DNA of 64,000 nt from Mustelus asterias (Eukaryota). The DNA is taken from NCBI RefSeq assembly GCF_964213995.1, contig NC_135804.1:58776001-58840000 (forward strand), in the 5' to 3' direction. Position 1 is the stretch's first letter. Every line of letters starts with the position of its first letter. Positions 1 through 64,000 of this stretch are shown piece after piece. The notes beneath the pieces are model-generated. The model did not search any database and was not told the DNA's origin. It saw only the letters and a list, made by a program, of their open reading frames with translations. The position numbers were made by a program, and so were the translations under genes.

Positions 1-321
1 TTGGACTCATATAGTTGTTTCAGTGATTGTTCACCATATGATGACATCAACAAGTTCCATCCCACCATCAGACTCACCATGGACTACTCTCCAGAATCAG
101 TTGCATTCTTGGACACACACATCGCTAAGGATGGTCACCTCAGCACCTCACTGTACCGCAAGCCCACGGATAACCTCACGATGCTCCACTTCTCCAGCTT
201 CCACCCTAAACATGTTAAAGAAGCCACCCACTACGGACAAGCCCTCCGTATACACAGGATCTGCTTGGATGAGGAGGATCGCAACAGCCCCCTCCAGACG
301 CTGAAAGATGCCCTCCTAAAA

Positions 322-660
322 GGGTGGCACGGTAGCACAGTGGTTAGAACTGCTGCTTCACAGTTCCAGGGACATGTGTTTGATTCCCGGCTTGGGTCAC
401 TCTGTGTGGAGTTTGCACATTCTCCTTGTGTCTCCGTGGGTTTCCTCCAGGTGCTCCGGTTTCCTCCCACAGTCCAAAGATGTGCGGGTTAGGTTGATTG
501 GCCATGCTAGAATTGCCCCTTAGTGTGTCCTGGGATGCGTAGATTAGAGGGATTAGCAGGTAAAATATGTAGGGATATGGGGGTGGGGCTGAGGTGGGAT
601 TGTGGTCGGTGCAGACTCGATGGGCTGAATGGCCTCTCTCTGTACTGTAGGGTTTCTATG
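322..660 (+). mobile_element. HE1-type (V-SINE, tRNA-derived) shark SINE inserted in the Penelope ORF
   Basis: tRNA-like head GGCACGGTAGCACAGTGGTTAG, V-domain GGGTTTCCTCC.GGTGCTCCGGTTTCCTCCCACAGTCCAAAGA, CR1-like tail ending TTCTATG. Confidence 0.9.
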
Positions 661-1588
661 ACTAAGAACAGGATATGGCGCTCGACTCATCGATCTACAG
701 TTCCGATGCGCCACAGCGAAAAACCGCACCGACATCCTCAGAAGACGAACACGGGACACAGTGGACAGAGTACCCTTTGTCGTCCAGTACTTCCCTGGAG
801 CAGAGAAGCTACGGCATCTTCTCCAGAGCCTTCATGTCATTGCTGAAGACTAACATCTCGCCAAGGCCACACCCCGACTTCTTGCCTTCAAACAACCGCA
901 CAACCTCAAACAGACCATTGTCCGCAGCAAACTACCCAGTCTTCAGGAGAACAGTGACCACGACACCACACAACCCTGCCACAGCAACCTCTGCAAGACG
1001 TGCTGGATCATCGACACGGATGCCGTCATCTCACGTGAGAACATCATCTACCAGGTACACGGTACCTACTCTTGCAACTCTGCCAACGTTGTCTACCTGA
1101 TATGCTGAAGGAAAGGATGTAAATTGGGGAAACCATGCAGATGCTACGACAACGGATAAATGAACACTGCTCGACAATCACCAGGCAAGACTGTTCTCTT
1201 CCTGTGGGGGAGCACTTCAGCGGTCACTGGCATTCAGCCTCTGATCTTCGGGTAAGCGTTCTCCAAGGCTGCCTTCACGACAGCGCAGAGTCGCTGAGCA
1301 GAAACTGATAGCCAAGTTCCGCACACATGAGGATGACCTAAACCGGGATGTTGGGTTTATGTCACACTATCAGTAACCCCCACAGCTTGCCTGCTGGACT
1401 TGCAGAATCTCACTGGCTGTCCTGTCTGGAGACTATACACATCTCTTTAACCTGTACTTAATGCTCCTTCCACTCACATTGTCTGTATCTTTTAAGACCT
1501 GGTTGGTTGTAGAGATTCGCATTTTAATCCGTATTCTGTAACTTGATTTTGTGTCTCTGTATACCCTGTTTGAGAGCAGATATCCACT

Positions 1589-1625
1589 CCATCTAACGGA
1601 GGAGCAGCGCTCCGAAAGCTAATGG
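1589..1625 (+). ncRNA. Degenerate minimal hammerhead ribozyme in Penelope tail
   Basis: CCAT-CTAACGG-A-GGAGC-AGC-GCTCC-GAAA-GC-TA-ATGG. Stems are intact but the core CUGANGA is mutated. Confidence 0.6.
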
Positions 1626-3944
1626 CATTTGCTACCAAATAAACCTGTTCTACTTTAACCTGGTGTTAAAACTCTTGTTGTGTTTACCCCAGTCCAACGC
1701 TGGCATCTCCACATCATCATGACTGCCTTCAAGTCTGACTCCAGGAGTTGCTGGTCAAGGAATGTTGCTAAATAAGTTGAGTAACTTGTGAATCCTTAAT
1801 GTACACCAACGGTAGACAGTAAGAGCAGGAGAAATTTCCATCACATGGTCAGCCATGTGATGGAAATTTATTGAAGCCTCTACCATCACTATCCGTAGTC
1901 TTGGGGTACAACATAATGTAATGGTGTGTTACTAGAGCAACTGACTCCTTGGAGGGTAAAATTGCTGGTGTCTATCAGACTGGTACCAATAGTCTGGGGG
2001 TTAATCCAACTGGAGTGGATTGGGACCTGCCTCCTGGCTGTGAGATCCGAGTGCTGTAGGTTAGACCTGCCTTCAGGCAGAGTAGAGGAATCGAATACCC
2101 TGGGTCTACAGCTATAAAAAGCTCAATCTTGGAATGTTTTTAGATTCTCGACTTCTCTCTCTTTGTCATGTTTACTTCTGCATACTCTACATGTTTGTCT
2201 TGCTGTTTAGATTTTGATGTTTTCTTGAAGTCAGCGAGCTGCAGAGTGGCGTAAGTCAGCTTGTTATCTCCGCTTTGTTTAGTCTGTGAAAGCAATATTT
2301 AATACCTGTTAACTTGTCAGCTCATTACTTGAGGCAATCAGATTTTTAAAAAGGCTGTAATGAAGTTTTCTCTAATTTCAAGTCACAGTTAATAAGAACA
2401 CCACAGTCCATCAAGTTTTAAAGAGCTCTCTTTGGAGCAATTTAGTCCCCTTTTATGCTGACGAAAAGTGGCCATCCAATTTCCTTTTGAAATTATGGGT
2501 CTCTGCTTCCCTCTATCCCTGGCAGCCCACAAACCGATCTGCAACCTGTTTTTAACCCCTACCCCCTCCCCCAACATCCCTTGCCCAAAAACCTCATTCT
2601 TATACCATCAGCTAATGGGAACACCACAATGAATCTCTGCTCCAAGGAGAGCAACACCAGCTTTTTCGTGCCGAGAACCATTGTTACATTTCCTCTTTAG
2701 GGCCCACACATACTAATGTGCGCTGACCTGAGCAGGCTGCAAAATCTGTGGCCTAACCAAAACTTTATAAAGCTTGAATATTAGAACCATGGAATCCATC
2801 AAGTGTGCATTGACTATCCAGGCCCACTAACCCTGTGCCTTTAGTATATCTAACCTACACAATCTACTTTTCATGTTTTACTCACCATTCCCTTACTATG
2901 TCCTGCACTACCACCTTCAAAGATTGATGCACGTAGACTCCCAGTTCCCTCTGTTCTGCACACTCTTTAGAACTGCGCCAGTACATCGATGATGTTTATC
3001 CTTATCCCTTCTGCCAAAGTCCAGCACCTTGTGTTTTTAGATTGCATTTTGCCACTTATCTGCCTATTCTGCAAGTTTATGTCCTGATGCAGCCCATTAC
3101 AACTCCTCCTTTGTTAGCTCCTCCAAGTTTGGTGTCATTGACAATTGTTTGTATTGGTTTTATTTTGAGTCTCTCTCCTCTTCAAAGTCCTCCCCCAAAT
3201 TGTGTTGGTATTCTGTTTCAATCTTCGAGTTCCCCTGCTATTATAACCAATTTAAGACAGCAGATACATACTTCAATTAAAATAACAGACAAATGAATTT
3301 CATACTTGCAGACTGGTGGTTACTTGTATGCTGGGATGATGTGGCTACATATGGGGTCACTTGGCAGGAGTGCAGGTAGACACACAGCATGCTGCTCAGA
3401 GTATTCCATAAACTGTTATTATTGTAATACTTGGTCGCCAGTTATTGGAACCCAGCAAAGAATATTTGACAAGCTAGTGTTACAATTGTGGCTTAAGACT
3501 GAATTTTGCATGAGCCCAGCTAATCTATCTGATCTACTTACCCCTGGGGAAAGGCTCCAAGGTCCTGTTTACCCACTGGCTTCCTCTCCCCTCTTTCCCC
3601 CCCAAATCTCTGGGCCATGAGGCAAATATGAATGTGGCTGAGATCAGTCAACAGAATCAGTTGGTTGATTAAAATGTGGGGCCTTCCCAATTGCTGCAGC
3701 TCAGTGTAGTACCATTTAACACTGAGGGTGTTTCAATTAATGATCTGAGCTGTACCTGGAAATATACAATACTCTTCTCTATCTGTATGGGTTTGCATTT
3801 TTCCTGGTGCTGGTTTCGACAGGGGCGTTGTTAGTTGAGTTTCTTACTTTGTGGTTTAGAACAGAGTCCAGTGTCCTTTTTATATTGCCTCTGATTGCTT
3901 TTTCCAACTAAATCAGTTGGAGAGATGCTGGTGCTTTAGGACTC

Positions 3945-3950
3945 TTTATT
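3945..3950 (-). promoter_or_regulatory. Candidate poly(A) signal of the receptor gene
   Basis: AATAAA on the minus strand about 97 nt after the TGA at 4049-4047; conserved in copy B (58726-58721). Confidence 0.45.
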
Positions 3951-4046
3951 CTGTCCAATAAAGTCAAAACCACACTGTGCAGTTTCAGTAATGATTGTGA
4001 TAACAGTGTTGATCTTGAATGAAAATAGTTTGGGTATTAATTGACC

Positions 4047-4175
4047 TCAGTCCCTTCGTCCTACCTGGGAATAGATGGTGTGCTCTTTCTCATATCTCCG
4101 TTTGGAGGGTCCATTGTCATGTTTCAAGTTTAGACCGGCATAGGCAACAATTTCATTATTTGGTCCTTGTTGAAC
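4047..4175 (-). CDS. Receptor exon 6: cytoplasmic signalling exon with ITIM (VAYAGL) and ITSM (TIYSQV)
   Basis: Acceptor TTTTTTTTTGCAG|GTT, phase 0. Translation VQQGPNNEIVAYAGLNLKHDNGPSKRRYEKEHTIYSQVGRRD*. Confidence 0.88.
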   Translation of the reverse strand, partial: VQQGPNNEIVAYAGLNLKHDNGPSKRRYEKEHTIYSQVGRRD

Positions 4176-7100
4176 CTGCAAAAAAAAATGGAATATTGGT
4201 TGAGAGTCATCTATCAACATTTGGAACTGAGTCTGAGAATGTAAATATGTAGACGGTAACTGATAACATTAGGGTACCATTACACACTATCCACTGATTT
4301 TATCTAATATTTCACAAATTATTTACCCGTATTTACAATTTAGATGATCTTGAGCATCACTAATAACTATCCTATGAACAATACAAACAAATCATTTCCT
4401 CCCCCTTTCTCAATTATCCCCTTTTACTTAATTTGACCTTTTCGACACCTTCCATCCCTCAGTAGAAATCTCCAATTCCACCGCCGAACCCAGAGGTGTA
4501 GTGTGCTGAACAATTCAGGTACCTGCAGCCAATCTGAATCAGCTAAGACACCAGAGGCAGGGATAGAAGCACGTAACAATGTAAGGATTAGGAGTAAAAC
4601 TAGGCCACATGACCCATTGGCATGCTCCACCATTCAATAGGTTAATGGCTGATTTGGTTGAGGTCTCAACTCCACTTTCCTGTTTATCCTCTAAGAAGAA
4701 ATTCCTCATCTTTGTCTTTGAATACTGTGGTAGGGTGGCATTTGTTGTCTCACTCCATTTAAATAGTTTAAATGATATTCTATGTTGAATATCTACGTTG
4801 GAGGAGGCCATTTGGCCCTTGGAGCCTGCTACCCGATTCATCATGATCATGGCTGATCATCCAACTCAGTAGCCTAATCCTACTTTCTCCTCCTAACCTT
4901 TGATCCCATTCACCCCAAGTGCTCTATCTAGCTGCCTCTTGAATACATTCAATGTTTTGGCATCAACTGATTCCTGTGGTAATGAATTCCACAGGCTCAC
5001 CACTCTTTGGGTGAAGAAATGTCTCCTCATCTCTCCTAAATGGTCTATCCTGAATCCTCAGACTGTGACCCCTGGTTCTGGACTCTCCCCACCATCGGGA
5101 ACATCCTCCCTGTGTCTATCTTGTCTAGTCCTGCTACAATTTTATAAGTCTGAGATTCCCCCCCTCATTCATCTGAACTCCAGTGAAAACAATCCTAACC
5201 TAGTTAATGTCTCCTCATACATCAGTCCCTATGTGGCACAAATGAAGATGGAGATTAATCATCTCAGCCCTAGTACACCATTGCAGGACTTTCTCAGGGT
5301 AGTGCCCGAGACCCAATCGCCTTCAGCTGCTTCATCAATGACATTCATTCAATCAAATATGGGTTTGACTGCACAATGTTCAGCACCATTCGCAACTCCT
5401 AACATACTGAAGCAGTCCATGCACAAGTGCAGCAAGACCCAGACAGCATCCAGGTTTTTGGCAAACAAGTGGCAAGTAATATTCATGCCACACAAGTGCC
5501 AGGCAATGACCATCTCCAACAAGAGATGGTCCATTGCCCTTTGACATTTGATGACATTACCGTCACTGAATCCCACACTATCAATATCCATTGACCAGAA
5601 ACTGAACTGGACTAGCCATAAAAATACTGTCACTACTAGAGCAAGATGAAAGTTAAGAATCCTGTGGCGAGTAACTCACTTCCTGACTCCCCAAATCCTG
5701 TCCACCATCTACAAGGCAAAAGTCAGGAGTGTAATGGAATACTCTCCATTTGCCTGGATAAATGCAGCTCCAAAAACACTGAAGAAGCTGGACACCATTC
5801 AGGCCAAAGCAACCCAATTGATTGATACCCTTTCTCAAACTATCTACAAGATGCATTGCAGGCGCACACTGAGGTTCCGAAGGCAGAACCTTCCAAACAC
5901 ACGGCCACTACTGTCCAGAAGGATAAGGTCAGCTGATACCTGCAAACACCATCACCTGTACAAAGAACAAACAAAGAACAGTACAGCACAGGAAACAGGC
6001 CCTTCGGCCCTCCGAGCTTGTGCCACTCATTGGTCCAACTAGACCATTCGTTTATATCCCTCCATTCCCAGTCTGCTCATGTGACTACCCAGGGAAGTCT
6101 TAAACGATGCCAGCGTGTCTGCCTCCACCACCCTACTTGGCAGCGCATTCCAGGCCCCCACCACTCTCTGTGTAAAAAACGTCCCTCTGATATCTGAGTT
6201 ATACCTCGCCCCTCTCACCTTGAGCTCGTGACCCCTCGTGATCGTCACCTCCGACCTGGGAAAAAGCTTCCCACTGTTCACCCTATCTATACCCTTCATA
6301 ATTTTGTACACCTCTATTAGGTCTCCCCTCATTCTCCGTCTTTCCAGGGAGAACAAGCCCAGTTTACCCAATCTTGTAAGTTCCCCTCCAAGTCACTTAC
6401 CATCCTGACTTTGAAATTCATGCTACTCCTTCACTATCCTTGGGTCGAAATCCTGTGATTCCTTTGCTAACAGCACTGTGGGTGCACCTCAGGAACTGCA
6501 GCAGTTCAAGAAGGCAGCTTATCACCACCTTCTCAAGGACAAATAGGGATGGTCAGCAAATGGTAGTTGAAAAAAATTCATTGGTGGGATATGGGTGTCG
6601 CTGGCTGGCCAGCATTTATTGCCCATCCCTAGTTGCCCTTGAGAAGGCGGTGGTGAGCCACGTTCTTAAATCACTGCAGTCCATGTGCTGAGGGTTGACC
6701 CACAATGCCATTGGAGGGAATTCCAGGGTTTTGACCAACCAACTGTGAAGGTACAGCAACAATATATTTCCAAGTCAGGATGGTACGTGCCTTGGAGGGG
6801 AACTTGTAGGTGGTGGTGCTCCCAAGTATCTGCTGCCTTTGTCCTTCTAGATGGAAGTGGTCGTGGGTTTGGAAGGTGCTGTCCAAGAATCATTGGTGAA
6901 TTGCTGCAGTGCATCTTGTAGATAGTACACACTGCTGCTATTGAGCGTCAGTGGCGCAGTGAGTGGATGTTGTCAAGCTTCTTGAATGTTGTTGGAGCTG
7001 TATCCATCCAGACAAGTGGGAAGTATTCCATCACACTCCTGACTTGTGCCTTGTAGATGGTGAATAGTTTTTGGGAAGTCAGGAGGTGAGTTACTTGCCA

Positions 7101-10100
7101 CAGTATTCCTAGCCTTTGACCTGCTCTTGTAGCCACTGTGTTTACGTGGTGGGTCCACTTGAGTTTCTGGTCAATGATCACCCCAAGGATGTTGAGAGTG
7201 GGGAATTCAGTGATGGTAACACCATTGAATATCAAGAGGCGGTGGTTAGCGTGTCTTTTATTGGTGATGGTCATTGCTTGGCATTTGTGTGGTGCAAACG
7301 TTACTTGCCACTTGTCAGCCCAAGCCTGGATATTGTCCAGATCTTGTTGCATTTGAACATGGACTGCTTCAGTATCTGAGGAGTCGTGAATGGTTCTGAA
7401 CATTGTGCAATCATCGGCGAACATTCTGACTTCTGACCTTATGACGGAAGGAAGGTTATTGATGAAGCAGCTGAAGGTAGTTGGGTCTAGGACACTGCCC
7501 TGAAGGACTTCTGCAGAGATGTCCTGGAGCTGAGATGACTGACCTTCCACAACAACAACCATCTTCCTATCTATCAGGTATGACCCCAACCAGCGGAGAG
7601 TTTGCTACTGATACACATTGATTCCAGTTTTGCCAGGACTCCTTGATGCCACACTCATTTGGATGCGGCCTTGATGTCAAGAGCTGTCACTCTCACTTCA
7701 CCTCTGGAATTCAGCTCTTTTGTCCATGTACTCTAGCTAGCGATGCCCAAATCCCATAAATGAATTAAAAATCACATTTTCCCACATTATACATTATCTG
7801 CCAAATTTTGAACCACTCACTTAACCCATTAATGTCCCTTTGCAGACTTTGTGTCCTGCTCAGAACTTGCTTTCCCACCCACTTTTTAGTACCATCAATT
7901 AATTTAGCTTGTTGGCTGCATGCAAATACAATGATTTCTTTTTACTACATTTCCCTACTCTGAGCGTATTTGCTCCTGCACTCTTATGTTTGTATGCTCT
8001 GCTCCTGTCAAATTGTGGCTATCATTACTCATATCTTTAACCTGCCGTCTTGCCTTGTTCTTTCTTTTCAACTCTCAGCACTAGGCACCTTCCTAATACC
8101 TCTGGTTATGATATGAAATGTGTTAACCAAGCAACTGGGCATATAGGAACCTCCTATTTTTGGAACAATTTGAATTATGAAAATGTTATCAGTTGGAAGA
8201 ATATTTCACAATAAATACTAATATTTATCTTGCTCTTACAAATCATAGAATCCCTAAGGTGCACAAAGAGGCCATTCGGCCCATCATGTCTACACTGACT
8301 CTCAACATAGCATCTTTCCCAGGCCCATCCCACACCCTATCCTCATAACCCTACACATTTACCTCACTAATCCCCCTAACCCTACATATCTTGGGATACC
8401 AAGAGGCAATTTAGCATGGCCAATTCACCTAACCAGCACATCTTTGGACTGTGGGAGGTAACCGGACAGGGGGAGAATGTGCAAGCTCCACACATTCACC
8501 CAAGGTTGGAATTGATCCCAGGTCCCTGGTGCTATAAGGCAGCAGGGCTCACCACTGTGCCACCCTTAATAATAAAAGCATGTGGGCAAAAAAAGAATTG
8601 ATGCTAAAACATTATAAACCACTTGTAAGTCCTCATTGGTGTATCATGCCCCATTCTGGGAACAACATTGTTGGGAGTGTTAGAAAGCAGGGGTAGGTTC
8701 AAGTGATCTCAGTCTGTATTGTTGGATATTAGAAATAAGGTATGGATTTAAGTGAGTTTCATTTAATGTTTCTGTGTAAGAAAGGATAAAACTCCGATTA
8801 GATTCTTGTTAAACAAAGGTGCATACATGTATGGGGGTGGGGGGGGGGGGAGTTGTTGGTTTCATTTTAAACTGTTTCTATTGTACTTAGAGAGTTTACA
8901 GCATGAAAAGTAAGCAAGAGCTTGGAGAAAGATTGAGCTTTTGTTTAGCAACTAGGGGCCATCTTTAGGGAAAAAGACCTTGTGTTTTTAATTTAACTGA
9001 ACCCATGGCAGATAGAACTTAGCAGCTGGAGAGACAGCAGCTCACTCAGCTCTGCCAGAAGCAAGACAGTGAAGTAATAGGCAAGAATGCATGTCTCAGA
9101 AACTAAAAAACAGTTAGTTCTAGAAACCAGAGAATGAAAAGAGAGGTCGCAGGAAACTGAGGTTTTGAGAACAAGACTGAAAGAAACTGAACAATTGTAC
9201 TATTTATTGAAGTTAAGGACAGAGCTGAGAAGTACAGACTTAGTGATGTTGCTTAGTGAGAAGCCAAAGGTCTGAAGTAATCATAGGGTTGGTGATATCT
9301 TGTTGCAGCCTGCGAAGCAATAGGTGAAACAATTGTGAAGCAATTGGTGGTTCGATCCCTGAGAGATTGTGTGGAAAACTTGAAAGCACGTGCCTATTCA
9401 AGACAAATGAATTACTGAAAGGATAGTTGGAAATTCTGGAAGTGAATCCTTTCTGGAAACAGTTGAGGGCAAGCATTGTTTGAAAGAAGATTTTAAGGCA
9501 TGCCTTTTCGAGAGTGATGATGTGGAGTTGCTGGCATTGGACTAGTGTAGGCACAATAAGTCGTCTCACAACACCAGGTTAAAGTCCAACAGGTTTACTT
9601 GGTAGCACGAGCTTTCGGAGCTTTTGGAGCACTGCTCCTTCATCAGGTGAGTCTCTCCTGACGAAGGAGCAGCGTTCCGAAAGCTCATGCTACCAAATAA
9701 ACCTGTTGGACTTTAACCTGGTGTTGTGAGACTACTTACTTTCCGAGAGTGGAGTCTAAAAACACTCGTGTGAATGCTGGAGTACAGTGATGTTAGGCTC
9801 ACAGTGTAATAAGCATCTGGGAGATTTGAGGGAAAAAAACATAGAAGTTCGACTGGGTGGCATTTGCCACTGGATTTCAGAGTGGGTGTTTTCTGACCAC
9901 AGTTAGCCTGTTGCATTACAAGGATGGTGTATTTATTGAGAATATTCTAGCCTAAGATGTATTTGCAACCTGTGTCATCCTTAAGATTTTCTGTTGTTAA
10001 CAGCTCATTGACAGTCCTGTGACTCGGTTCATCCATGTTTTCTAAAATAAAATGTAAAAGTTACGGTCTTTTGAGCGAGGATCTATTCTGGGACCTTCCC

Positions 10101-17310: not shown

Positions 17311-17845
17311 GTTGCATTTCGTTGGCTACTTGCTGCAAATGAGAATGATATCTACGATGGTTTGCCTAAGTAATAGATTTCATGGTTAAATATACGAAAC
17401 GTGTGACGATGACATGAGAGACCACATGACTAAAACAGCGTATTGTGTTCGTTTACATTTCTGTGTGTGTGTTATATGTGGGGTGGGGAGGGTGGTGGTC
17501 GCGGGAGAAGCTGACCTCCTAACTGCCGCCGAAAGGCTATCACTTGAAGACCAATTTTATGCAGCCACTTTCGGAACACTTCGTTCCCGATTTTCTTTGT
17601 CAACACCAGACTTTGATTCTTCACTTAATCCTGAAAATAACGATGCCGGCTGCAGGCGGCCTTCCAGCGCTTCATCTGAGATATCCTTTTTCCTGTAGGA
17701 GCATAAAGTCTGCAAATATTTAGACCTGAGTACTTTGAACTGAGTGCGATCGGGACCTCAAGCAACCTCCAGCCACCTGACTTGTAGCAGAATCACTGGA
17801 ATAACTATTCAGATTAACAATCTCCCTATATTAGTTGCACTCCAC

Positions 17846-46070: not shown

Positions 46071-46639
46071 CTCTTAAAGCATGGTACCCGATGACAGATT
46101 TTTAAGTTTGTTTATTAGTGTCACAAGTAGGCTTTTATTAACACTGCAGTGAACTTTGACAATCCCCTAGTTGCCACAAGCTGGTTCCTGTTTGTCGATG
46201 AAGCATTCTACATCCCTCTCAGCTCGTCCTCCCATCCAGCTTCGTTTCATCTGCAAATTTGGAGATATTGCACTTGGCTCCATCTAAATTCATTAATATG
46301 TGAATAGTTGGGGTCCGAGCACTGATCCGTGTGGTACTGTTATACTGCAACGGTACACTGAGGAAGAACTTTGCATGGCCAACAAACCTAACAAGTCTTT
46401 CGGACTATGGGAGGAAACTGGAGCCCTGGAGGAAACCTGTGCAGACTCCACACAGACAGTGACCCAACTCGGGTCCCTGCTGCTGTGAGGCAGCCATGCT
46501 ACGCACTACCACCATGCATTATGGGGGAGAGCCTGATGTCAGTAGAGGGGAAAAATTCAAGAGTCCGATTGTCCAGGTTAAAATAACAATACTTGGAAAA
46601 CAGTGGCAGAATGAGACAGTTGGTGTGGATTTGAGGGAA

Positions 46640-47931: not shown

Positions 47932-48004
47932 CTGTCCATGATACTGAATGGTGTGTTCTGAACTTGCCGTTTTCCTGCCAGGTTTGGGCTGCTCTCTTTA
48001 CTAG

Positions 48005-48217
<213 letters not shown>

Positions 48218-49611: not shown

Positions 49612-49633
49612 GTTTAATTTTATTTATAACTGA
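49612..49633 (+). CDS. NUDT21: NUDT21 last coding exon ((R)FNFIYN*)
   Basis: TTGAATTCTAG|G TTT AAT TTT ATT TAT AAC TGA; phase 2 matches the previous exon. Confidence 0.95.
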
Positions 49634-52080: not shown

Positions 52081-52531
52081 ATTGATTGGCACTTAATGCT
52101 CCAAAAGGAATATCCAAGTCTGATCTCAAACCATGGAATTTCAATTTTAAGAACTATCATAAACTGACATTACAAAATCTGTATGACTTGGTTGATATTG
52201 TTTCAAACTTGAGCAAATTTATAACATGCTACCCAAAGTAATAAAATATTTGCAAAGCCTTCTTGGTATGAAAAGGAACTGATATTAGACTTGTTCCATT
52301 GGATAAGTGACCAATTCTCCTGTTTTACCACCTTGGCTTTGTGGATTCTCACCATTGTTCTGTACTTTAATTGCGATGAATGAAACTCTACGGTTAATGA
52401 ACAAATATCAGGAGGCCTTGTGGCACAGTGGGTACCTGCTTCTGAGGCAGAAGCTCTGGGTTCAAGTCTGACACAGTAAGAGTTTTAACAACACCAGTTT
52501 AAAGTCCAGCAGGTTTATTTGGTAGCAAATG

Positions 52532-52568
52532 CCATTAGCTTTCGGAGCGCTGTTCCTTCGTCAGATGG
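52532..52568 (-). ncRNA. Minimal hammerhead ribozyme, core intact
   Basis: CCAT-CTGACGA-A-GGAAC-AGC-GCTCC-GAAA-GC-TA-ATGG, with one stem II mismatch. Confidence 0.72.
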
Positions 52569-55500
52569 AGTGGATATCTGCTCTCAAACAGGGCATACAG
52601 AGACATAAAATCAAGTTACAGAATACTGATTAGAATGCAAATCTCTACAGCCAGCCAGGTCTTAAAGATGCAGACAATGTGAGTGAAGGGAACATTAAAC
52701 ACAGGTTAAAGAGATGTGTATTGTCTCCAGACAGGACAGCCAGTCAGATTCTGCAAGTCCAGGAGGCAAGCTGTGGGGGTTACTGATAGTGTGACATAAA
52801 CCCAGCATCCCAATTTAGGCTGTCCTCATATGTGCGGAACCTGGCTATCAGTTTCTGCTCAGCGACTCTGCACTGTCGTGTGTCGTGGAGAACGCTTACC
52901 CGAAGATCTGAATGCCCGTGACCGCTGAAGTGCTCCCCCACAGGAAGAGAACAGTCTTGCCTGGTGATTGTTGAGCGTTGTTCATTTATCTGTTGTTGTA
53001 GTGTCTGCATGGTATCCTCAATGTACCATGCCTCGGGACATCCTTTCCTGCAGCGTATCAGGTAGACAACGTTGGCTGAGTTGCAAGAGTAGGTATCGTG
53101 TACCTGGTAGATGGTGTTCTCACATGAGATAATGGCATCTGTGTCGATGATCCAGCACGTCTTGCAGAGGTTGCTGTGGCAGGGTTGTGTGGTATTGTGG
53201 TCACTGTTCTCCTGAAGGCTGGGTAGTTTGCTGTGGACATTGGTCTGAGGTTGTGCGGTTGTTTGAAGGCAAGAAGTGCGGGTGTGGGGATGGCCTTGGT
53301 GAGATGTTCGTCTTCATCAATGACATGTTGAAGGCTCCGGAGGAGATGCTGTAGCTTCTCCGCTCTGGGGAAGTACTGGACGATGAAGGGTACTGTGTCC
53401 TGTGTTTGTCTTCTGAGGAGGTTGGTGTGGTTTTTTGCTGTGGCGTGTCGGAACTGTCGATCGATGAGTCAAGCGCTATATCCTGTTATGAGGGCATCTT
53501 TCAGCGTCTGGAGGTGTCTGTTGCGATCCTCCTCATCCGAGCAGATCCTGTGTAAAAGGAAGGCTTGTCTGTAGGGGATGGCTTCTTTAACGTGTTTAGG
53601 GTGGAAGCTGGAGAAGTGGAGCACCGTGAGGTTATCCATGGGCTTGCGGTACAGTGAGGTGCTGAGGTGACTATGCTTAATGGAGATGCGTGTATCCAAG
53701 AATGCAACTGATTCCGGAGAGTAGTCCATGGTGAGTCTGATGGTGGGATGGAACTTGTTGATGTCGTCGTTGTTTCAGTGATTGTTCACCATGAGTCCAA
53801 AGGAAGAAAATGTCATCGGTGTATCTAGTGTATAGCATCGGTTGAAGGTCCTGTGCGGTGAAGAAGTCTTGTTCGAACCTGTGGATGGAGGTGTTGGCAT
53901 ATTGAGGTGCGAATTTGGTCCCCATGGCTGTTCCATGTGTCTGGGTGAAGAACTGGTTGTTGAAGGTGAAGACATTGTGGTCCAGGATGAAGCGGATGAG
54001 TTGTAAAATTACATCTGGAAACTGGCAGTTGTCGGCGTTGAGTACTGAGGCCGTTGCAGCAATGCCATCATCATGGGGGATGCGGGTGTAGAGTGCCGAG
54101 ACATCCATTGTGATGAGTGCTCCTGGTTCAACTGCTCCATGTGTGCTGATCAAGACCTTTTTGATCCAGACCTTCAGAGCACCCTCCGTGCTCTTATCCC
54201 ACATACTCCCCGCATTGGAGATCTCTACTGCCTCCCGAAGATACACAAGGCAAACACACCCGGCTGTCCCATCATATCGGGCAACGGGGCCCTGTGCAAG
54301 AACCCCTCCAGCTACATCGAGGGCATCCTGAAACCAATTGTACAAAGAACCCCCAGCTTTTGTCGCAAAACTACGGACTTCCTACAGAAACCCAGCGCAC
54401 ATGGAGCAGTTGAACCAGGAGCACTCCTCATCACAATGGATGTCTCGGCACTCTACACCAGCATCCCCCACGATGATGGCATTGCTGTAACGGCCTCAGT
54501 ACTCAACGCCGACATCTGCCAGTTTCCAGATGTAGTTTTACAACTCATCCTGGACCACAATGTCTTCACCTTCAACAACCAGTTCTTCATCCAGACCCAT
54601 GGAACAGCCATGGGGACCAAATTCACACCTCAATATGCCAACATCTTCATCCACAGTTTCGAACAAGACTTCTTCACCGCACAGGACCTTCAACCGATGC
54701 TATACACTAGATACATCGATGACATTTTCTTCCTTTTTGGACTCTCAGTTGTTTCAGTGATTGTTCACCATATGATGACATCAACAAGTTCCATCCCACC
54801 ATCAGACTCACCATGGACTACTCTCCGGAATCATTTGCATTCTTGGACACACTCGTCTCCATTAAGGATGGTCACCTCAGCACCTCACTGTACCCCAAAC
54901 CCACGGATAACCTCACGATGCTCCACTTTCCAGCTTCCACCCTAAACATGTTAAAGAAGCCACCCACTACGGACAAGCCCTCCGTATACACAGGATCTGC
55001 TCAGATGAGGAGGATTGCAACAGACACCTCCCAGACGCTGAAAGATGCCCTCATAAAAGGGCGGCACGGTAGCACAGTGGTTAGAACTGCTGCTTCACAG
55101 TTCCTGGGACATGTGTTTGATTCCCGGCTTGGGTCACTGTCTGTGTGGAGTTTGCACATTCTCCTTGTGTCTGTGTGGGATTCCTCCAGGTGCTCCGGTT
55201 TCCTCCCAAAGTCCAAAGATGTGCGGGTTAGGTTGATTGGCCATGCTAAAATTGCCCCTTAGTGTGTCCTGGGATGCGTGGATCAGTGGGTAAAATATGT
55301 AGGGATATGGGGGTGGGGTCGAGGTGGGATTGTGGTTGGTAAAGACTCGATGGGCCAAATGGCCTCTTTCTGTACTGTAGGGTTTCTATGACTAAGAACA
55401 GGATATGGCGCTCGACTCATCGATCGACAGTTCCGACGCGCCACAGTGTAAAACCGCACCGACCTCCTCAGAAGACAAACACAGGACACGGTGGACAGAG

Positions 55501-56325
55501 TACCCTTTGTCGTCCAGTACTTCCCCGGAGCGGAGAAGCTACGGCATCTCCTCCGGAGCCTTGATGTCATTGCTGAAGACTAACATCTCGCCAAGGCCAC
55601 ACCCCCACTTCTTGCCTTCAACCAACCGCACAACCTCAAACAGACCATTGTCCGCAGCAAACTACCCAGCCTTCAGGAGAACAGTGACCATGACACCACA
55701 CAACCCTGCCACAGCAACCTCTGCAAGACGTGCCAGATCATTGACACGGATGCCGTCATCTCACGTGAGAACACCATCTACCAGGTACACGGTACCTACT
55801 CTTGCAACTCGACCAACGTTGTCTACCTGATACACTGAAGGAAAGGATGTACATTGGGGAAACCATGCAGACAGTACGACAACGGATAAATGAACATCGC
55901 TCGACAATCAGCAGGCAAGACTGTTCTCTTCCTGTGGGGGAGCACTTCAGCGGTCACGGGCATTCAGCCTCTGATCTTCGGGTAAGCGTTCTCCAAGGCG
56001 GCCTTCACGACACACGACAGCGCAGAGTCGCTGAGCAGAAACTGATAGCCAAGTTCCGCACACATGAGGACGGCCTAAACTGGGATGTTGGGTTTATGTC
56101 ACACTATCAGTAACCCCCACAGCTTGCCTCCTGGACTTGCAGAATCTGACTGGCTGTCCTGTCTGGAGACAATACACATCTCTTTAACCTGTGTTTAATG
56201 CTCCCTCCACTCACATTGTCTGTATCTTTAAGACCTGGTTGGCTGTAGAGATTCACATTCTAATCAGTATTCTGTAACTTGATTTTGTGTCTCTGTATAC
56301 CCTGTTTGAGAGCAGATATCCACTG

Positions 56326-56362
56326 CATCTAACGAAGGAGCAGCGCTCCGAAAGCTAATGGC
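56326..56362 (+). ncRNA. Degenerate hammerhead ribozyme (core CUAACGA)
   Basis: Paralogous position to 1589-1625; shares the G-to-A core change. Confidence 0.6.
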
Positions 56363-58711
56363 ATTTGCTACCAAATAAACCTGTTCGACTTTAACCTGGT
56401 GTTAAAACTCTTACTGTGTTTACCCCAGTCCAACGCTGGCATCTCCACATCATGACTGCCTTCAAGTCTGACTCCAGGAGTTGCTGGTCAAGGAATGTTG
56501 CTAAATAAGTTGAGTAACTTGTGAATCCTTAACGTACACCAACGGTAGACAGTAAGAACAGGAGAAATTTCCATTACATGGTCAGCCATGTGATGGAAAT
56601 TAATTGAAGCCTCTACCATCACTATCCATAGTCTTGGGGTACAACATAATGTAATGGTGTGTTACTAGAGCAACTGACTCCTTGGAGGGTTAAATTGCTG
56701 GTGTCTATCAGACTGGTACCAATAGTCTGGGGGTTAATCCAACTGGAGTGGATTGGGACCTGCCTCCTGGCTGTGAGATCTGAGTGCTGTAGGTTAGACC
56801 TGCCTTCAGGCAGGGTAGAGGAATCGAATACCCTGGGTCTACAACTATAAAAAGCTCAATTTTGTGTTGTTTTTAGATTCTCGACTTCTCTCTCTTTGTC
56901 ATGTTTACTTCTGCATACTCTACATGTTTGTCTTGCTGTTTAGATTTTGATGTTTTCTTGAAGTCAGCGAGCTGCAGAGTGGCGTAAGTCAGCTTGTTAT
57001 CTCCGCTTTGTTTAGTCTGTGAAAGCAATTTTTAATACCTGTTAACTCGTCAGCTCATTACTTGAGGCAATCAGATTTTTAAAAAGGCTGTAATGAAGTT
57101 TTCTCTAATTTCAAGTCACAGTTAATAAGAACACACAGCCCATCAAGTTTAACCAGCTCTCTGTGGAGCAATTTAGTCCCCTTTTATGCTGACAAAAAGT
57201 GGCCATCCAATTTCCTTTTGAAATTATTGGTCTCTGCTTCCCTCTATCCCTGGCAGCCCACAAACCTATCTCCAACCTGTTTTTAACCCCCACCCCCTCC
57301 CCCCAACATCCCTTGCTCAAAAGCTTCATTCTTGTACTATCAGCTAATGGGAACACCACAATGAATCTCTGCTCCAGGGAGAGCAACACGAGCTTTTTCA
57401 TGCCTAGAACCATTGTTACATTTCCTCTTTTAGTGCCCACACATACTAATGTGTGCTGACCTGAGCAGGCTGCAAAACCTGTGGCCTAACCAAAACTTTA
57501 TAAAGCTTGAATATTAGGACCATGGAATCCATCAAGTGTGCACTGACTATCCAGGCCCACTACCCCCTCTATCCTATAACCCTGTGCCTTTAGTATACCT
57601 AACGTACACAATCTACTTGTCATGTTTTACTCACCACTCCCTTACTATGTCCTGCACTACCACCTTCAAAGATTGATGCACGTAGACTCCCAGTTCCCTC
57701 TGTTCTGCACACTCTTTAGAACTGCGCCAGTACATCGATGATGTTTATCCTTATCCCTTCTGCCAAAGTCCAGCACCTTGTGTTTTTAGATTGCATTTTG
57801 CCACTTATCTGTCTATTCTTTTGTCCTGATGCAGCCCATTAAAACTCATCCTTTGTTAGCTCCTCCAAGTTTGGTATCATTGACAATTGTTTGTATTGGT
57901 TTTATTTTGAGTCTCTCTCCTCTTCAAAGTCCTCCCCCAAATTGTGTTGGTATTCTGTTTCAATCTTCGAGTTCCCCTGCTATTATAACCAATTTAAGAC
58001 AGCAGATGCATACTTCAATTGAAATAACAGACAAATGAATTTCATACTTGCAGACTGGTGGTTACTTGTATGCTGGGATGACGTGGCTACATATGGGGTC
58101 ACGTGGCAGGAGTGCAGGTAGACACACAGCATGCTGCTCAGAGTATTCCATAAACTGTTATTGTTCTAATACTTGGTCGCCAGTTATTGGAACCCAGCAA
58201 AGAATATTTGAAAAGCTGGTGTTACAATTGGTGCTTATGACTGAATTTTGCATGAGCCCAGCTAATCTATCTGATCTACTTACCCCTGGGGAAAGGCTCC
58301 AAGGTCCTGTTTACCCACTGGCTTCCTCTCCCCTCTTTCCCCCCAAATCTCTGGGCCATGAGGCAAATATGAATGCTGGCTGAGATCAGTCAACACCATC
58401 AGTTGGTTGATTAAAATGTGGGGCCTTCACAATTGCTGCAGCTCAGTGTAGTACCATTTAACACTGAGGGTGTTTCAATGAATGATCTGAGCTATACCTG
58501 GAAATATACAATACTCTTCTCTATCTGTATGGGTTTGCATTTTTCCTGGTGTTGGTTTCGACAGGGGCGTTGTTAGTTGAGTTTCTTATTTTGTGGTTTA
58601 GAACAATCATTACTGTAGCCAGCCCCAAAAAGGGAACAGAGTCCAGTGCCCTTTTTATATTGCCTCTGATTTGCTTTTTCCAACTAAATCAGTTGGAGAG
58701 ATGCTGGTGCT

Positions 58712-58951
58712 TTAGGACTCTTTATTCTGTCCAATAAAGTCAAAACCACACTGTGCAGTTTCAGTAATGATTGTGATAACAGTGTTGATCTTGAATGAAA
58801 ATAGCTTGGGTATTAATTGACCCCAGTCCCTTCGTCCTACCTGGGAATAGATGGTGTGCTCTTTCTCATGTCTCCGTTTGGAGGATCCATTGTCATGTTT
58901 CAAGTTTAGACTGGCATAGGCAACAGTTTCATTATTTGGTCCTTGTTGAAC
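58712..58951 (-). CDS. Terminal ITIM/ITSM exon of a second receptor copy (remaining exons predicted beyond 64000); stop-loss adds 37 aa
   Basis: VQQGPNNETVAYASLNLKHDNGSSKRRHEKEHTIYSQVGRRDWGQLIPK...QNKES*. Acceptor intact; TGA->TGG relative to copy A. Confidence 0.85.
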   Translation of the reverse strand, partial: VQQGPNNETVAYASLNLKHDNGSSKRRHEKEHTIYSQVGRRDWGQLIPKLFSFKINTVITIITETAQCGFDFIGQNKES

Positions 58952-61900
58952 CTGCAAAAAAAATGGAATATTGGTTGAGAGTCATCTATCAACATTTGGA
59001 ACTGAGTCTGAGAATGTAAATATGTAGACGGTAACTGATAACATTCGGGTACCATTACACACTATCCACTGATGTAATCTAATATTTCACAAATTATTTA
59101 CCCGTATTTACAATTGAGATGATCTTGAGCATCACTAATAACTATCCTATGAACAATGCAAACAAATCATTCCCTCCCCCTTTCTCAATTATCTCCTTTT
59201 ACTTAATTTGACCTTTTACTTCGACACATTCCATCCCTCAGTAGAAATCTCCAATTCCACTGCCTAACCCAGAGGTGTAGTGTGCAGAACAATTCAGGTA
59301 CCTGCAGCCAATCTGAATGAGCTAAGACACCAGAGGCAGGGATAGAAGCACGTAACAATGTAAGGATTAGGAGTAAAACTAGGCCACATGACCCATTGGC
59401 ATGCTCCACCATTCAATAGGTTAATGGCTGATTTGGTTGAGGTCTCACCTCCACTTTCCTGTTTATCCTCTAAGAAGAAATTCCTCATCTTTGTCTTTGA
59501 ATACTGTGGTAGGGTGGCATTTGTTGTCTCACTCCATTTAAATAGTTTAAATGATATTCTACGTTGAGTAGTACATAGAAGATAGGAGGAGGCCATTTGG
59601 CCCTTGGAGCCTGCTACCCCATTCATCATGATCATGGCTGATCATCCAACTCAATAGCCTAATCCTACTTTCTCCTCCTAACCTTTGATCCCATTCACCC
59701 CAAGTGCTTTATCTAGCTGCCTCTTGAATACATTCAATGTTTTGGAACCAACTGATTCCTGTGGTAATGAATTCCACAGGCTCACCACTCTTTGGGTGAA
59801 GAAATGTCTCCTCATCTCTCCTAAATGGTCTACCCTGAATCCTCAGACTGTGACCCCTGGTTCTGGACTCCCCCCACCATCGGGAACATCCTCCCTGCGT
59901 CTATCCTGTCAAGTCCTGCTAGAATTTTATAAGTCTGAGATTCCCCCCTCATTCATCTGAACTCCAGTGAAAACAATCCTAACCTAGTTAATGTCTCCTC
60001 ATACATCAGTCCCTATGTGGCACAAATGAAGATGGAGATTAATCATCTCAGCCCTAGTACACCATTGCAGGACTTTCTCAGGGTAGTGCCCGAGACCCAA
60101 TCGCCTTCAGCTGCTTCATCAATGACATTCATTCAATCAAATATGGGTTTGACTGCACAATGTTCAGCACCATTCGCAACTCCTAACATACTGAAGCAGT
60201 CCATGCACAAGTGCAGCAAGACCCAGACAGCATCCAGGTTTTGGCAAACAAGTGGCAAGTAATATTCATGCCACACAAGTGCCAGGCAATGACCATCTCC
60301 AACAAGAGATGATCCATTGCCCCTTGACACTTGATGACATTACCGTCACTGAATCCCACACTATCAATATTCATTGACCAGAAACTGAACTGGACTAGCC
60401 ATAAAAATACTGTCACTACTAGAGCAAAGTGAAAGTTAAGAATCCTGTGGCGAGTAACTCACTTCCTGACTCCCCAAATCCTGTCCACCATCTACAAGGC
60501 AAAAGTCAGGAGTGTAATGGAATACTGTCCATTTGCCTGGATAAATGCAGCTCCAAAAACACTGAAGAAGCCGGACACCATTCAGGACAAAGCAGCCCAA
60601 TTGATTGATACCCTTTCTCAAACTATCTACAAGATGCATTGCAGGCGCTGAGGTTCCGAAGGCAGAACCTTCCAAACACACGGCCACTACCGTCCAGAAG
60701 GATAAGGTCAGCTGATACCTGCAAACACCACCACCTGTACAAAGAACAAACAAAGAACAGTACAGCACAGGAAACAGGCCCTTGGGCCCTCCGAGCCTGT
60801 GCCACTCATTGGTCCAACTAGATCATTCGTTTGTATCCCTCCATTCCCAGACTGCTCATGTGACTATCCAGGTAAGGCTTAAACAATGCCAGCGTGTCTG
60901 CCTCCACCACCCTACTTGGTAGCGCATTCCAGGCCCCCACCACTCTCTGTGTAAAAAACGTCCCTCTGATATCTGAGTTATACCTCGCCCCTTGAGCCCG
61001 TGACCCCTCGTGATCGTCACCTCCGACCTGGGAAAAAGCTTCCCACTGTTCACCCTATCTATACCCTTCATAATTTTGTACACCTCTATTAGGTCTCCCC
61101 TCATTCTCCGTAGTTCCAGGGAGAACAAGCCCAGTTTACCCAATCTTGTAAGTTCCCCTCCAAGTCACTTACCATCCTGACTTTGAAATTCATGCTACTC
61201 CTTCACTATCCTTGGGTCGAAATCCTGTGATTCCTTTGATAACAACACTGTGGGTGCACCTCAGGAACTGCAGCAGTTCAAGAAGGCAGCTTATCACCAC
61301 CTTCTCAAGGACAAATAGGGATGGTCAGCAAATGGTAGTTTTTAAAAATTCATTGGTGGGATATGGGTGTCGCTGGCTGGCCAGCATTTATTGCCCATCC
61401 CTAGTTGCCCTTGAGAAGGCAGTGGTGAGCCACGTTCTTAAATCACTGCAGTCCATGTGCTGTGGGTTGACCCACAATGCCATTGAGGGAATTCCAGGGT
61501 TTTGACCAAACAACTGTGAAGGAACAGCAGCAATATATTTCCAAGTCAGGACGGTAAGTGCCTTGGAGGGGAACTTGTGGTGGTGCTCCCATGTATCTGC
61601 TGCCTTTGTCCTTCTCGATGGAAGTGGTCGTGGGTTTGGAAGGTGCTGTCCAAGAATCATTGGTGAATTGCTGCAGTGCATCTTGTAGATAGTACACACT
61701 GCTGCTATTGAGCGTCAGTGGTGCAGTGAGTGGATGTTGTCAAGCTTCTTGAATGTTGTTGGAGCTGTACCCATCCAGACAAGTGGGAAGTATTCCATCA
61801 CACTCCTGACTTGTGCCTTGTAGATGGTGAATAGTTTTTGGGAAGTCAGGAGGTGAGTTACTTGCCACAGTATTCCTAGCCTTTGACCTGCTCTTGTAGC

Positions 61901-64000
61901 CACTGTGTTTACGTGGTGGGTCCACTTGAGTTTCTGGTCAATGATCACCCCAAGGATGTTGAGAGTGGGGAATTCAGTGATGGTAACACCATTGAATATC
62001 AAGAGGCGGTGGTTAGCGTGTCTTTTATTGGTGATGGTCATTGCTTGGCATTTGTGTGGTACAAACGTTACTTGCCACTTGTCAGCCCAAGCCTGGATAT
62101 TGTCCAGATCTTGTTGCATTTGAACATGGACTGCTTCAGTATCTGAGGAGTCGTGAATGGTGCTGAACATTGTGCAATCATCGGCGAACATTCCGACTTC
62201 TGACCTTATGACGGAAGGAAGGTTATTGATGAAGCAGCTGAAGGTAGTTGGGTCTAGGACACTGCCCTGAAGGACTCCTGCAGAGATGTCCTGGAGCTGA
62301 GATGACTGACCTTCCACAACAACAACCATCTTCCTATCTATCAGGTATGACCCCAACCAGCGGAGAGTTTGCTACTGATACACATTGATTCCAGTTTTGC
62401 CAGGACTCCTTGATGCCACACTCATTTGGATGCGGCCTTGATGTCAAGAGCTGTTACTCTCACTTCACCTCTGGAATTCAGCTCTTTTGTCCATGTACTC
62501 TAGCTAGCGATGCCCAAATCCCATAAATGAATTAAAGGAGGATAACCTCACATTTTTCCACATTATACATTATCTGCCAAATTTTGAACCACTCACTTAA
62601 CCCATTAATGTCCCTTTGCAGACTTTGTGTCCTGCTCAGAACTTGCTTTCCCACCCACTTTTTAGTACCATCAATTAATTTAGCTTGTTGGCTGCATGCA
62701 AATACAATGATTTCTTTTTACTACATTTCCCTACTCTGACCGTATTTGCTCCTGCACTCTTATGTTTGTATGCTCTGCTCCTGTCAAATTGTGGCTATCA
62801 TTACTCATATCTTTAACCTGCCGTCTTGCCTTGTTCTTTCTTTTCAACTCTCAGCACTAGGCACCTTCCTAATACCTCTGGTTATGATATCAAATGTGTT
62901 AACCAAGCAACTGGGCATATAGGAACATCCTATTTTTGGAACAATTTGAATTATGAAAATATTATCAGTTGGAAGAATATTTCACAATAAATACTAATAT
63001 TTATCTTGCCCTTACAAATCATAGAATCCCTACAGTGCACAAAGAGGCCATTCAGCCCATCATGTCTACACTGACTCTCAACATAGCATCTTTCCCAGGC
63101 CCATCCCACACCCTATCCTCATAACCCTACATATTTACCTCACTAATCCCCCTAACCCTACATGTCTTGGGATACCAAGAGGCAATTTAGCATGGCCAAT
63201 TCACCTAACCAGCACATCTTTGGACTGTGGGAGGTAACCGGACAGGGGGAGAATGTGCAAGCTCCACACATTCACCCAAGGTTGGAATTGATCCCAGGTC
63301 CCTGGTGCTATAAGGCAGCAGGGCTCACCACTGTGCCACCCTTAATAATAAAGGCATGTGGGCAAAAAAAGAATTGATGCTAAAACATTATAAATCACTT
63401 GTAAGTCCTCATTGGTGTATCATGCCCCATTCTGGGAACAACATTGTTGGGAGTGTTAGAAAGCAGGGGTAGGTTCAAGTGATCTCAGTCTGTATTGTTG
63501 GATATTAGAAATAAGGTATGGATTTAAGTGAGTTTAATTTAATGTTTCTGTGTAAGAAAGGATAAAACTCCGATTAGATTCTTGTTAAACAAAGGTGCAT
63601 ACATGTATGGGGCGGGGGGGGGGGGGGGGGGGAGGGCGGAGTTGTTGGTTTCATTTTAAACTGTTTCTATTGTACTTAGAGAGTTTACAGCATGAAAAGT
63701 AAGCAAGAGCTTGGAGAAAGATTGAGCTTTTGTTTAGCAACTAGGGACCATCTTTAAGGAAAAAGACCTTGTGTTTTTAATTTAACTGAACCCATGGCAG
63801 ATAGAACTTAGCAGCTAGAGAGACAGCAGCTCACTCAGCTCTGCCAGAAGCAAGACAGTGAAGTAATAGGCAAGAATGCATGTCTCAGAAACTAAAAAAC
63901 AGTTAGTTCTAGAAACCAGAGAATGAAAAGAGAGGTCGCAGGAAACTGAAGTTTTGAGAACAAGACTGAAAGAAACTGAACAATTGTACTATTTATTGAA

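Follow-up and report, generated by a model that had tools for sequence, protein, structure and literature searches.

The stretch of Mustelus asterias DNA analysed here (the window, 64,000 nucleotides of contig NC_135804.1) holds a complete receptor gene, A1, and the last two cytoplasmic exons of its copy A2, the remainder of which lies to the right (Table 1). The receptor is intact in all three units of the repeat described below (genes A1-A3), with GT-AG splice sites and an open frame for 354 amino acids that runs from a joined VJ domain through a C1 domain, encoded by one C1 exon in each gene, to a transmembrane segment (TM) and a tail with four tyrosine motifs (VAYAGL, TIYSQ, LTYATL and VEYAEV). 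The AlphaFold2 model of the A1 V domain has a mean pLDDT of 92, and RefSeq-type models from another shark agree with the tail exons. The array receptor is predicted from its sequence to be inhibitory, i.e., a "brake". A 72-base candidate cytoplasmic exon (9970-10041) was rejected, because its phase breaks the frame and it is absent from another shark's models. As a weak side observation, the alignment of a putative-RNA contig of another organism ends exactly at the V donor (16767), and the contig continues for 431 bases.

Table 1. Features of the 64,000-nucleotide window, in window coordinates
Feature	Position	Strand	Remarks
Repeat unit 1, right part	1..38890		Start 17,697 bases left of window (C4:58758303)
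A1 last exon	2140..2283	-	LTYATL, VEYAEV, stop
Decayed extra tyrosine-motif exon	3755..3840 (approximate)	-	Frameshifted in A1-A3; open in gene B and P0060
A1 cytoplasmic exon	4065..4175	-	VAYAGL and TIYSQ
A1 cytoplasmic linker exon	11051..11094	-	Counterpart in P0060
A1 uncharged transmembrane exon	11695..11802	-	Same segment in horn-shark models P0044, P0060
Putative conversion tract 2 (C1 exon)	13222..13535	-	About 313 bases; 2 fixed differences
A1 C1-set exon	13227..13523	-	Pfam C1-set E 7.1e-9
Putative conversion tract 1 (leader, intron 1, V exon)	16711..17316	-	About 605 bases; 1 fixed difference from activating-type genes
A1 joined VJ exon (V-set)	16767..17072	-	Pfam V-set E 2.6e-14; G-strand GTGTQLTV
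A1 leader exon	17256..17310	-	Leader matches models P0001 and P0046
Pseudogene of membrane-arginine gene C	30908..33186	-	Leader, V, C1, TM remnants with stops and frameshifts
Unit junction	38881..38906	+	T-run, then 10-base insert copied from just inside next unit
Repeat unit 2, left part	38891..64000		Extends to window-equivalent 95,569
Orphan NUDT21 3' end	48102..52059	+	PF13869 match at 48,101
Inverted pair of Penelope-like retroelement fragments	52471..56419		Arms 88-90% alike; short interspersed repeat inserted
A2 last two cytoplasmic exons	56873-57016, 58841-58951	-

An earlier note had read the locus as a tandem duplication of about 54.7 kb, in which positions 1-9211 recur at 54737-64000, and self-BLAST bears out this recurrence (95.7% identity over 9309 columns, with 32 gap openings). 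The duplication is real, but its period and copy number had to be corrected. The figure of 54.7 kb is a local offset only, which applies beyond an insertion of 1,931 bp that unit 1 alone carries and is too short by 1.9 kb, and the assembly holds three head-to-tail units with periods of 56,588, 56,679 and 57,451 bp, the third ending near window-equivalent position 153,000. The divergence had been put at 1-6%; mean substitution divergences between units are 1.9, 2.2 and 1.4% over 53,732 columns, and 6% is reached only in the Penelope-like stretch of unit 1. The second full gene that had been expected to reach about 72 kb was found there (window-equivalent positions: C1 68,668, V 72,204 and leader 72,447), as was the V exon of a third copy at 130,382. 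Each unit contains the four parts that had been proposed for it: the receptor together with a dead paralogue, the orphan 3' end of NUDT21 and an inverted Penelope-like element.

The unit boundary at 38,891 lies within a NUDT21 intron, and the second junction of the array is built on the same plan as the one in the window. Large indels are private to each unit (1,931; 499; 1,396 bases), and unit 2 is a mosaic, with its first third nearer to unit 3 and several later stretches nearer to unit 1. The array, with its head-to-tail units and defined junction, is thus a tandem segmental duplication of the birth-and-death type, and it lies, in line with the earlier proposal, within a larger cluster of V-C1 genes. 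The head-to-tail multiplication of the receptor gene is young; tandem duplication taken alone is ordinary.

With respect to the other contents of the unit, the pseudogene scores 68-76% to gene C. The NUDT21 remnant consists of the penultimate exon (48102-48216), the last coding bases (49612-49633), which we take to encode the NUDT21 C-terminal peptide, and the 3' UTR up to an AATAAA near 52054. The inverted retroelement pair, whose unit 1 copy ends at 1683, gave weak RVT_1 matches to a reverse transcriptase below the Pfam cut-off, and its Penelope label presumes a GIY-YIG-like motif to which Pfam gave no score.

At least two copies of the unit are secure, and three copies on one chromosome are likely, since the sequence favours three and depth fits two or three. 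The assembly crosses the array without N gaps, and contigs of runs X3 and X9 bridge the junction with 0 mismatches over 179 and 209 bases, which makes a pure assembly artefact unlikely. These are two of four runs and belong to one study, so that they are perhaps not independent animals; the contigs of X1 terminate on either side of the junction, and those of X5, which carries a different organism label, continue into other sequence at both of its ends. It is nevertheless conceivable, if unlikely, that each haplotype has only two real units, from which the assembly made three. The same mosaic of unit 1-like and unit 3-like stretches could result from mis-joining two haplotypes with two units each, the depths of the X1 contigs (41.8, 50.2 and 57.5, as against ~20-26 for small contigs) are compatible with two or three copies, and the same cluster contains an Ap1/Ap2 block of 65.6 kb that is 99.71% identical. 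However, the pairwise divergence of 1.4-2.2% between units is 6-10 times that of this block, every unit has its private large indel, and the two gap-free junction regions differ from each other by about 1.5-2%.

The array stands at the left end of a cluster that spans 1.2 Mb and comprises 28 V-C1 genes. By their membrane segments, 12 of these are uncharged and 13 combine a short tail with an arginine near the outer end of the TM, the remaining 3 being unassigned. Four arginine-type genes, Ap1-Ap4, lie 0.66-1.16 Mb away from the array and in opposite orientation to it. Paired receptors are defined, in the available text of PMC3533184, by similar ectodomains, with an ITIM tail on one member and a short tail and a TM Arg or Lys on the other. 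Judged from sequence, this cluster combines all of these, namely similar ectodomains, an ITIM-tail member and a short-tail TM-Arg member, and the arginine-type genes are predicted to be activating ("accelerator"). For the TM of the zeta/FcR-gamma family, there are two matches in the genome; the FcR-gamma chain has been reported absent from sharks (PMC4016189). That the arginine-type genes are decaying truncated copies rather than activating receptors is quite improbable. They stop within the TM exon, their tails are shorter than that of the catshark model, and the TM exon of E2 is damaged, but Ap1-Ap4 retain undamaged L, V and C1 frames and splice sites, and the same arginine TM is found in models from other sharks.

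The L-V and C1 exons of Ap1-Ap4 are 94-98% identical to those of the array, whereas the introns hardly match. Across the six distinct A-type genes, there are 2 fixed sites and 10 sites shared between the classes in 658 columns of exon, as compared to 148 fixed and 2 shared sites in 975 columns of flank (Fisher P 1.6e-12, calculated over sites that are not independent). In the tree, A1 groups with Ap4 (99/96), and the catshark activating model P0001, whose V is only 75-79% identical to the A-type genes, is sister to all six (clade of seven 100/100, six alone 88/57). The pattern of exon-limited identity is repeated in subfamilies B, E and F. This identity between predicted inhibitory and activating genes points to gene conversion between paired receptors, such that the outward-facing exons of A and Ap are likely near-identical because sequence was copied between them. 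An inversion is not required for this, since F1 and F2 have a 3.9-kb tract in common in the same orientation.

Some features of the V exons qualify this reading. Each A/Ap pair retains 2-8 synonymous V differences, and a comparison of A1 with Ap4 still yields 5 synonymous and 3 non-synonymous V differences, showing that the matched pairs are not fresh copies. The shared V sites are all non-synonymous (6/6 versus 8/18 private ones, P 0.024), and 2 of them lie at CpG, so that some of the sharing may be due to parallel change or selection. Among the A copies, V dN/dS is at or below about 1, which does not indicate positive selection. The one V contig listed for X1 equals Ap1 at 13/13 listed exon sites, but a homogenisation reading of this was dropped because contigs drop variants. 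Purifying selection on an old duplicate, under which exons would be conserved beyond introns as they normally are, and with which the uniformly non-synonymous shared sites could be reconciled, is a very unlikely substitute for conversion: synonymous sites diverge by 3-12%, whereas the neighbouring intron bins mostly differ by 11-28% and beyond that do not align, intron 1 contains only 1 fixed difference in 183 columns, and the V of the catshark activating counterpart has diverged by 21-25%, which shows that this domain is not slow. Finally, a false copy of one haplotype as the source of the entire duplication, for which only the general risk in segmental duplications speaks, is next to inconceivable and was rightly argued against in the earlier note, as the junction lies at a non-homologous point, is present twice and is bridged without mismatch by contigs of two samples.

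We thus consider it highly probable that the window contains the junction of an array in which a predicted inhibitory VJ-C1 receptor is repeated in three tandem units, and that gene conversion with the predicted activating receptors, which lie 0.66-1.16 Mb off on the opposite strand, likely keeps its leader-V and C1 exons alike. The first duplicate may have arisen from one replication or end-joining error that cut inside NUDT21 and left the 10-base templated insert, and unequal crossing-over may have given rise to the third copy and the mosaic units. SHP-1/2-type phosphatases would be the partners recruited to the four-tyrosine tail, and a CD3-zeta/FcR-gamma-type adaptor would carry the signal of the arginine-type genes. 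Short conversion tracts, together with selection on few V residues, would keep brake and accelerator seeing the same ligand, most likely a self ligand mimicked by pathogens, or a pathogen adhesin. A bolder and rather doubtful extension is that sharks possess a brake-and-accelerator system of the SIRP type, where every tandem brake copy would have its own V haplotype matched to its own accelerator (A1-Ap4, A3-Ap1/Ap2 and, loosely, A2-Ap3), nested as the arms of a megabase hairpin, so that the young array would fix several matched specificities on one chromosome, and that the family is the cartilaginous-fish root of the SIRPs.

The paired-receptor principle is known from mammals and frogs, and the shark family looks little described: none of the papers listed by our literature search describes this cluster, though some shark immune-gene work may cover it. 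The available text of a 2022 review lists SIRPs for mammals, birds and lizards alone and treats their origin as unknown (PMC9652883). Sharks and rays, with their large family of VJ-C1 paired receptors, provide a concrete candidate for this origin. Conversion limited to exons, in four subfamilies, would mean that the arms race over decoy receptors seen in mammals and frogs also takes in the oldest lineage of jawed vertebrates. From the matched V variants, specific residues can be chosen for ligand tests, namely 7, 9, 11, 31, 59 and 62; in the model, residue 31 is part of the B-C loop and residue 62 of the D-E loop.

Among known systems, NKp30 has a joined VJ exon, a similar G-strand and a membrane arginine, all seen in the shark family, but its single V stands directly before the TM with no C1, which the shark receptors possess. 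Identity with NKp30/NCR3 was rejected because of this C1 exon and of a better candidate, a separate gene on contig C8 that matches NKp30 structures first; NKp30 is also absent from the best 60 of 89 PDB matches for the window's V. UrIg and UrIg2 resemble the family as non-rearranging shark VJ with C1, and UrIg2 is the top PDB match of the C1 exon, but UrIg2 contains many C domains and is linked to antigen receptors, UrIg is linked to the MHC, and inhibitory/activating pairs are not mentioned for either in the available text of PMC12227049 and PMC10751288. In Xenopus and human CEACAMs, according to the available text of PMC5112662, conversion is confined to ligand-binding exons of oppositely oriented inhibitory and activating genes, much as proposed here; however, CEACAMs are another Ig family whose activators bear their own ITAM, and the shark V and C1 lie in separate tracts, over 0.66-1.16 Mb.

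The earlier analogy to KIR, SIRP and NITR clusters holds best for the SIRPs, with KIR and NITR serving only as a general pattern. The receptor family is SIRP-like in design, its SIRP orthology being unproven. Fold searches gave generic V-set matches that did not distinguish families, with SIRP and NKp30 absent among the matches listed, and the PDB profile search was dominated by multi-Ig proteins; among the matches listed, SIRP-alpha was the best non-antibody immunoreceptor PDB match for V and V-C1, and the top two Atlas clusters were SIRP-alpha (score 0.93). The shark receptor is ~26% identical to a rodent SIRP-beta-like protein, and the single rodent SIRP-type row in the tree has a very long branch. 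The neighbouring genes are NUDT21 and a CUE-domain gene, probably AMFR. The mammalian SIRP neighbour is NSFL1C, a single synteny marker for which SEP-domain matches, with only the best candidates scored, fell on C7 and C20 and none on C4; family searches of the genome for CD47 and OGFOD1 gave no match, and neither did their controls. SIRPs carry two C1 domains and, in the activating member, a TM lysine, whereas A1-A3 carry one C1; the skate model P0035 combines two C1 domains with a tyrosine motif. The activating SIRP pairs with DAP12 in the available text of PMC3533184. In this DAP12-type pairing, SIRP-beta differs from the shark activating-type genes, which have the membrane arginine instead. 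What the shark family shares with the SIRPs is the ectodomain of a joined VJ followed by C1, the clustering of inhibitory and activating members and, in the tail of the array receptor, the SIRP-alpha layout of four cytoplasmic tyrosine motifs.

The recurrence of window 1-9211 at 54737-64000, which an earlier note had read from the sequence, was borne out by a self-comparison of the window (95.7% identity, 32 gap openings), and in the gapless surrounding region it extends to an array of three units. The tandem duplication thus stands, but not its proposed period of ~54.7 kb: the units measure 56,588, 56,679 and 57,451 bases, and 54.7 kb is the offset after an insertion of 1,931 bases private to unit 1. 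Over 53,732 shared columns, substitution divergence is 1.9% between units 1 and 2, 2.2% between 1 and 3 and 1.4% between 2 and 3. The 1-6% given earlier narrows to unit means of 1.4-2.2%, and a 6% stretch is found only in the Penelope-like element of unit 1, with 190 private changes in 3,963 columns versus 384 in 35,217 elsewhere. CpG decay does not account for this excess, and sequence from another copy may have replaced the element.

Locations of features in and around the window (G000:C4 is contig NC_135804.1; the window is G000:C4:58776001-58840000)
Feature	Location	Strand	Remark
Region fetched	G000:C4:58.576-60.240 Mb		no N gaps
Array	G000:C4:58758303 to ~58929013		three units
Divergent Penelope-like element, unit 1	window 1-1700 plus 2.3 kb left of window		
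Cytoplasmic exon of A1 and A2 with VAYAGL and TIYSQ	window 4065-4175 and 58841-58951		
Unit boundary	window 38891		within NUDT21 intron
NUDT21 exons	G000:C4:58745286, 58755646, 58769427		last recurs at 58824101 and 58880734
NUDT21 penultimate exon with edges	window 48089-48226		138 bases
CUE-domain exon	L043:1005-1127 (G000:C4:58697011)	minus	5' of NUDT21, opposite strand
V-C1 loci	G000:C4:58.78-59.96 Mb		28 (tblastn)
Ap1-Ap4	59.56-59.96 Mb	plus	
65.6-kb block	G000:C4:59523966-59589559 and 59682806-59748433		Bp1/Ap1 versus Bp2/Ap2
Gene E4	G000:C4:59655553		
Second large VJ-C1 group, same family	G000:C4:67.6-70.0 Mb		apparent duplication, ~1.35 Mb offset
Lone VJ-C1 member, same family	G000:C4:54.66 Mb		
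V-TM genes	L190:7219-7527 and L188 (G000:C8)		no nearby C1

The unit boundary falls within NUDT21, and only the last of the three exons located recurs. At both junctions the unit ends in a T-run, after which come 10 bases duplicated from slightly within the next unit; the array would have originated in a single template-switch or end-joining event, followed by unequal crossing-over. The junction was checked in contigs of four sequencing runs, three of which (X1, X3 and X9) are samples from one study that may not be independent animals. It is bridged without mismatch in X3 (38770-38948) and X9 (38796-39004), so that at least two units are real; X1 contigs end on either side, as expected at a branch, and those of X5, a run with another organism label, continue into other sequence at both ends. 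Three units on the chromosome are likely, given the large private indels of every unit and a divergence 6-10 times that of a nearby block of 99.71% identity, though unit 2 is a mosaic and contig depth fits two copies as well as three. The duplication looks lineage-specific.

Over the penultimate NUDT21 exon and its edges the three units do not differ, although two NUDT21 copies lack upstream exons; this may be due to chance. The CUE-domain exon is probably AMFR, and its placement relative to NUDT21 would differ from the human order.

A predicted second full gene was indeed found, as a 354-aa frame with GT-AG sites is intact in all three copies (A1-A3). It encodes a leader, a joined VJ (Pfam V-set), a C1 domain (Pfam C1-set), an uncharged TM and a tail with the motifs VAYAGL, TIYSQ, LTYATL and VEYAEV. 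These TM and tail exons recur in horn-shark models, which contain one additional tyrosine exon; that exon is open in the neighbour gene B but carries a frameshift in A1-A3. In A1, read-through of the exon encoding VAYAGL and TIYSQ would run into a stop shortly after TIYSQV, but A2 and A3 no longer have that stop. In a contig from another organism's run, guessed to be RNA, the alignment stops exactly at the V donor site, a weak hint at splicing. The pseudogene paralogue expected in the unit is a dead copy of gene C, present in every unit, hence A together with the pseudogene probably goes back to an older duplication of the B-C pair next to it.

A TM-exon scan of the 28 V-C1 loci gave 12 uncharged types and 13 whose TM has an arginine towards its outer end and is soon followed by a stop; E2, E4 and H2 were given no class. 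The genome search listed 61 V matches, and in the second group C1 lies within 8 kb in 15 of the 16 regions fetched. For the L190 V, NKp30 structures were the first matches. Among 76 proteins found by profile search, 46 were classed (45 matches from cartilaginous fish together with one cluster mate; five possibly non-independent records, two partial matches and the unrelated multi-Ig proteins were set aside): 13 have a tyrosine-motif tail, 20 a short tail (about 10 with a TM arginine, judged by eye), three a long tail without motif and 10 no TM. Their database names vary (SIRP-alpha-like, tapasin-related, Ig lambda-like, NCR3LG1-like). The 65.6-kb block of 99.71% identity stems from a recent unequal crossover or from a mis-join of haplotypes; the units around it are otherwise 90-97% alike, and the middle one looks chimeric. 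The TM exon of E4 is of the inhibitory type but has acquired an arginine at a position occupied by cysteine in its paralogues E3 and E5, and homologous TM exons of the F subfamily have glycine versus arginine. Activating types may have evolved on more than one occasion.

Ap1-Ap4, the arginine-type counterparts of A, match it only around L-V and around C1. Ap2 was omitted from the site counts, its V and C1 being identical to those of Ap1. In 658 exon columns of the six remaining genes, class differences are fixed at 2 sites and variants are shared across classes at 10; the corresponding numbers in 975 flanking columns are 148 and 2. The inferred conversion tracts (~16711-17316 and 13222-13535) end near exon edges. 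Four V variants are common to A1 and Ap4 only, two to A3 and Ap1 only, and a tree joins A1 with Ap4 (support 99/96); the mirror-like order of the A/Ap matches has by itself a ~1-in-6 chance. Identity likewise breaks at the TM in B/Bp, in E1/E3 (96.5% over 376 bases, opposite strands) and in F1/F2 (98% over 3.9 kb, same strand). Judged by sequence, the activating type is old, since the catshark protein model P0001 joins an A-type ectodomain to an arginine TM; its V is only 75-79% identical, versus 91-98% between A1 and the Ap genes. Conversion is patchy and not very recent: between matched A/Ap partners 2-8 synonymous differences remain, each of the six shared V sites is a residue change (two at CpG), and V dN/dS is not above ~1. 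Selection probably shapes which shared variants persist.

Paired receptors are defined by a tyrosine-motif tail for inhibition and a TM arginine or lysine for an ITAM adaptor (PMC3533184). By this definition, the four-motif tail would make A1-A3 inhibitory, and the arginine-type genes would use an ITAM adaptor. The genome has two matches to the zeta/FcR-gamma family; PMC4016189 reports no FcR-gamma found in sharks. In Xenopus CEACAMs, exon-limited conversion between opposed genes was interpreted as a way of countering pathogens with decoys (PMC5112662). Conversion may serve the shark receptors likewise, and by this analogy a decoy function appears likeliest.

Neither tandem arrays nor converted paired receptors are new as kinds. 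We found no published description of this shark cluster in an incomplete coverage of the literature, and it is absent from the available parts of PMC11599192 and PMC13262535. The contribution of the window is twofold: its expansion is dated and the junction validated, and the sharing of exons between the two signalling classes has direct evidence at the level of sites. An identity of the array receptor with NKp30 was rejected, as was UrIg on domain count (PMC12227049 and PMC10751288, as far as available). SIRPs are placed at the tetrapod level in PMC13262535. Among the best-scored candidates, SEP-domain matches, taken as a marker of NSFL1C, which neighbours SIRP in mammals, lie on C7 and C20 and none on C4; in the tree, the one rodent sequence sits on a very long branch. 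We chose not to file the receptor under SIRP: the system would work like SIRP-alpha/beta, but its receptor has one C1 and its activators are arginine-type.
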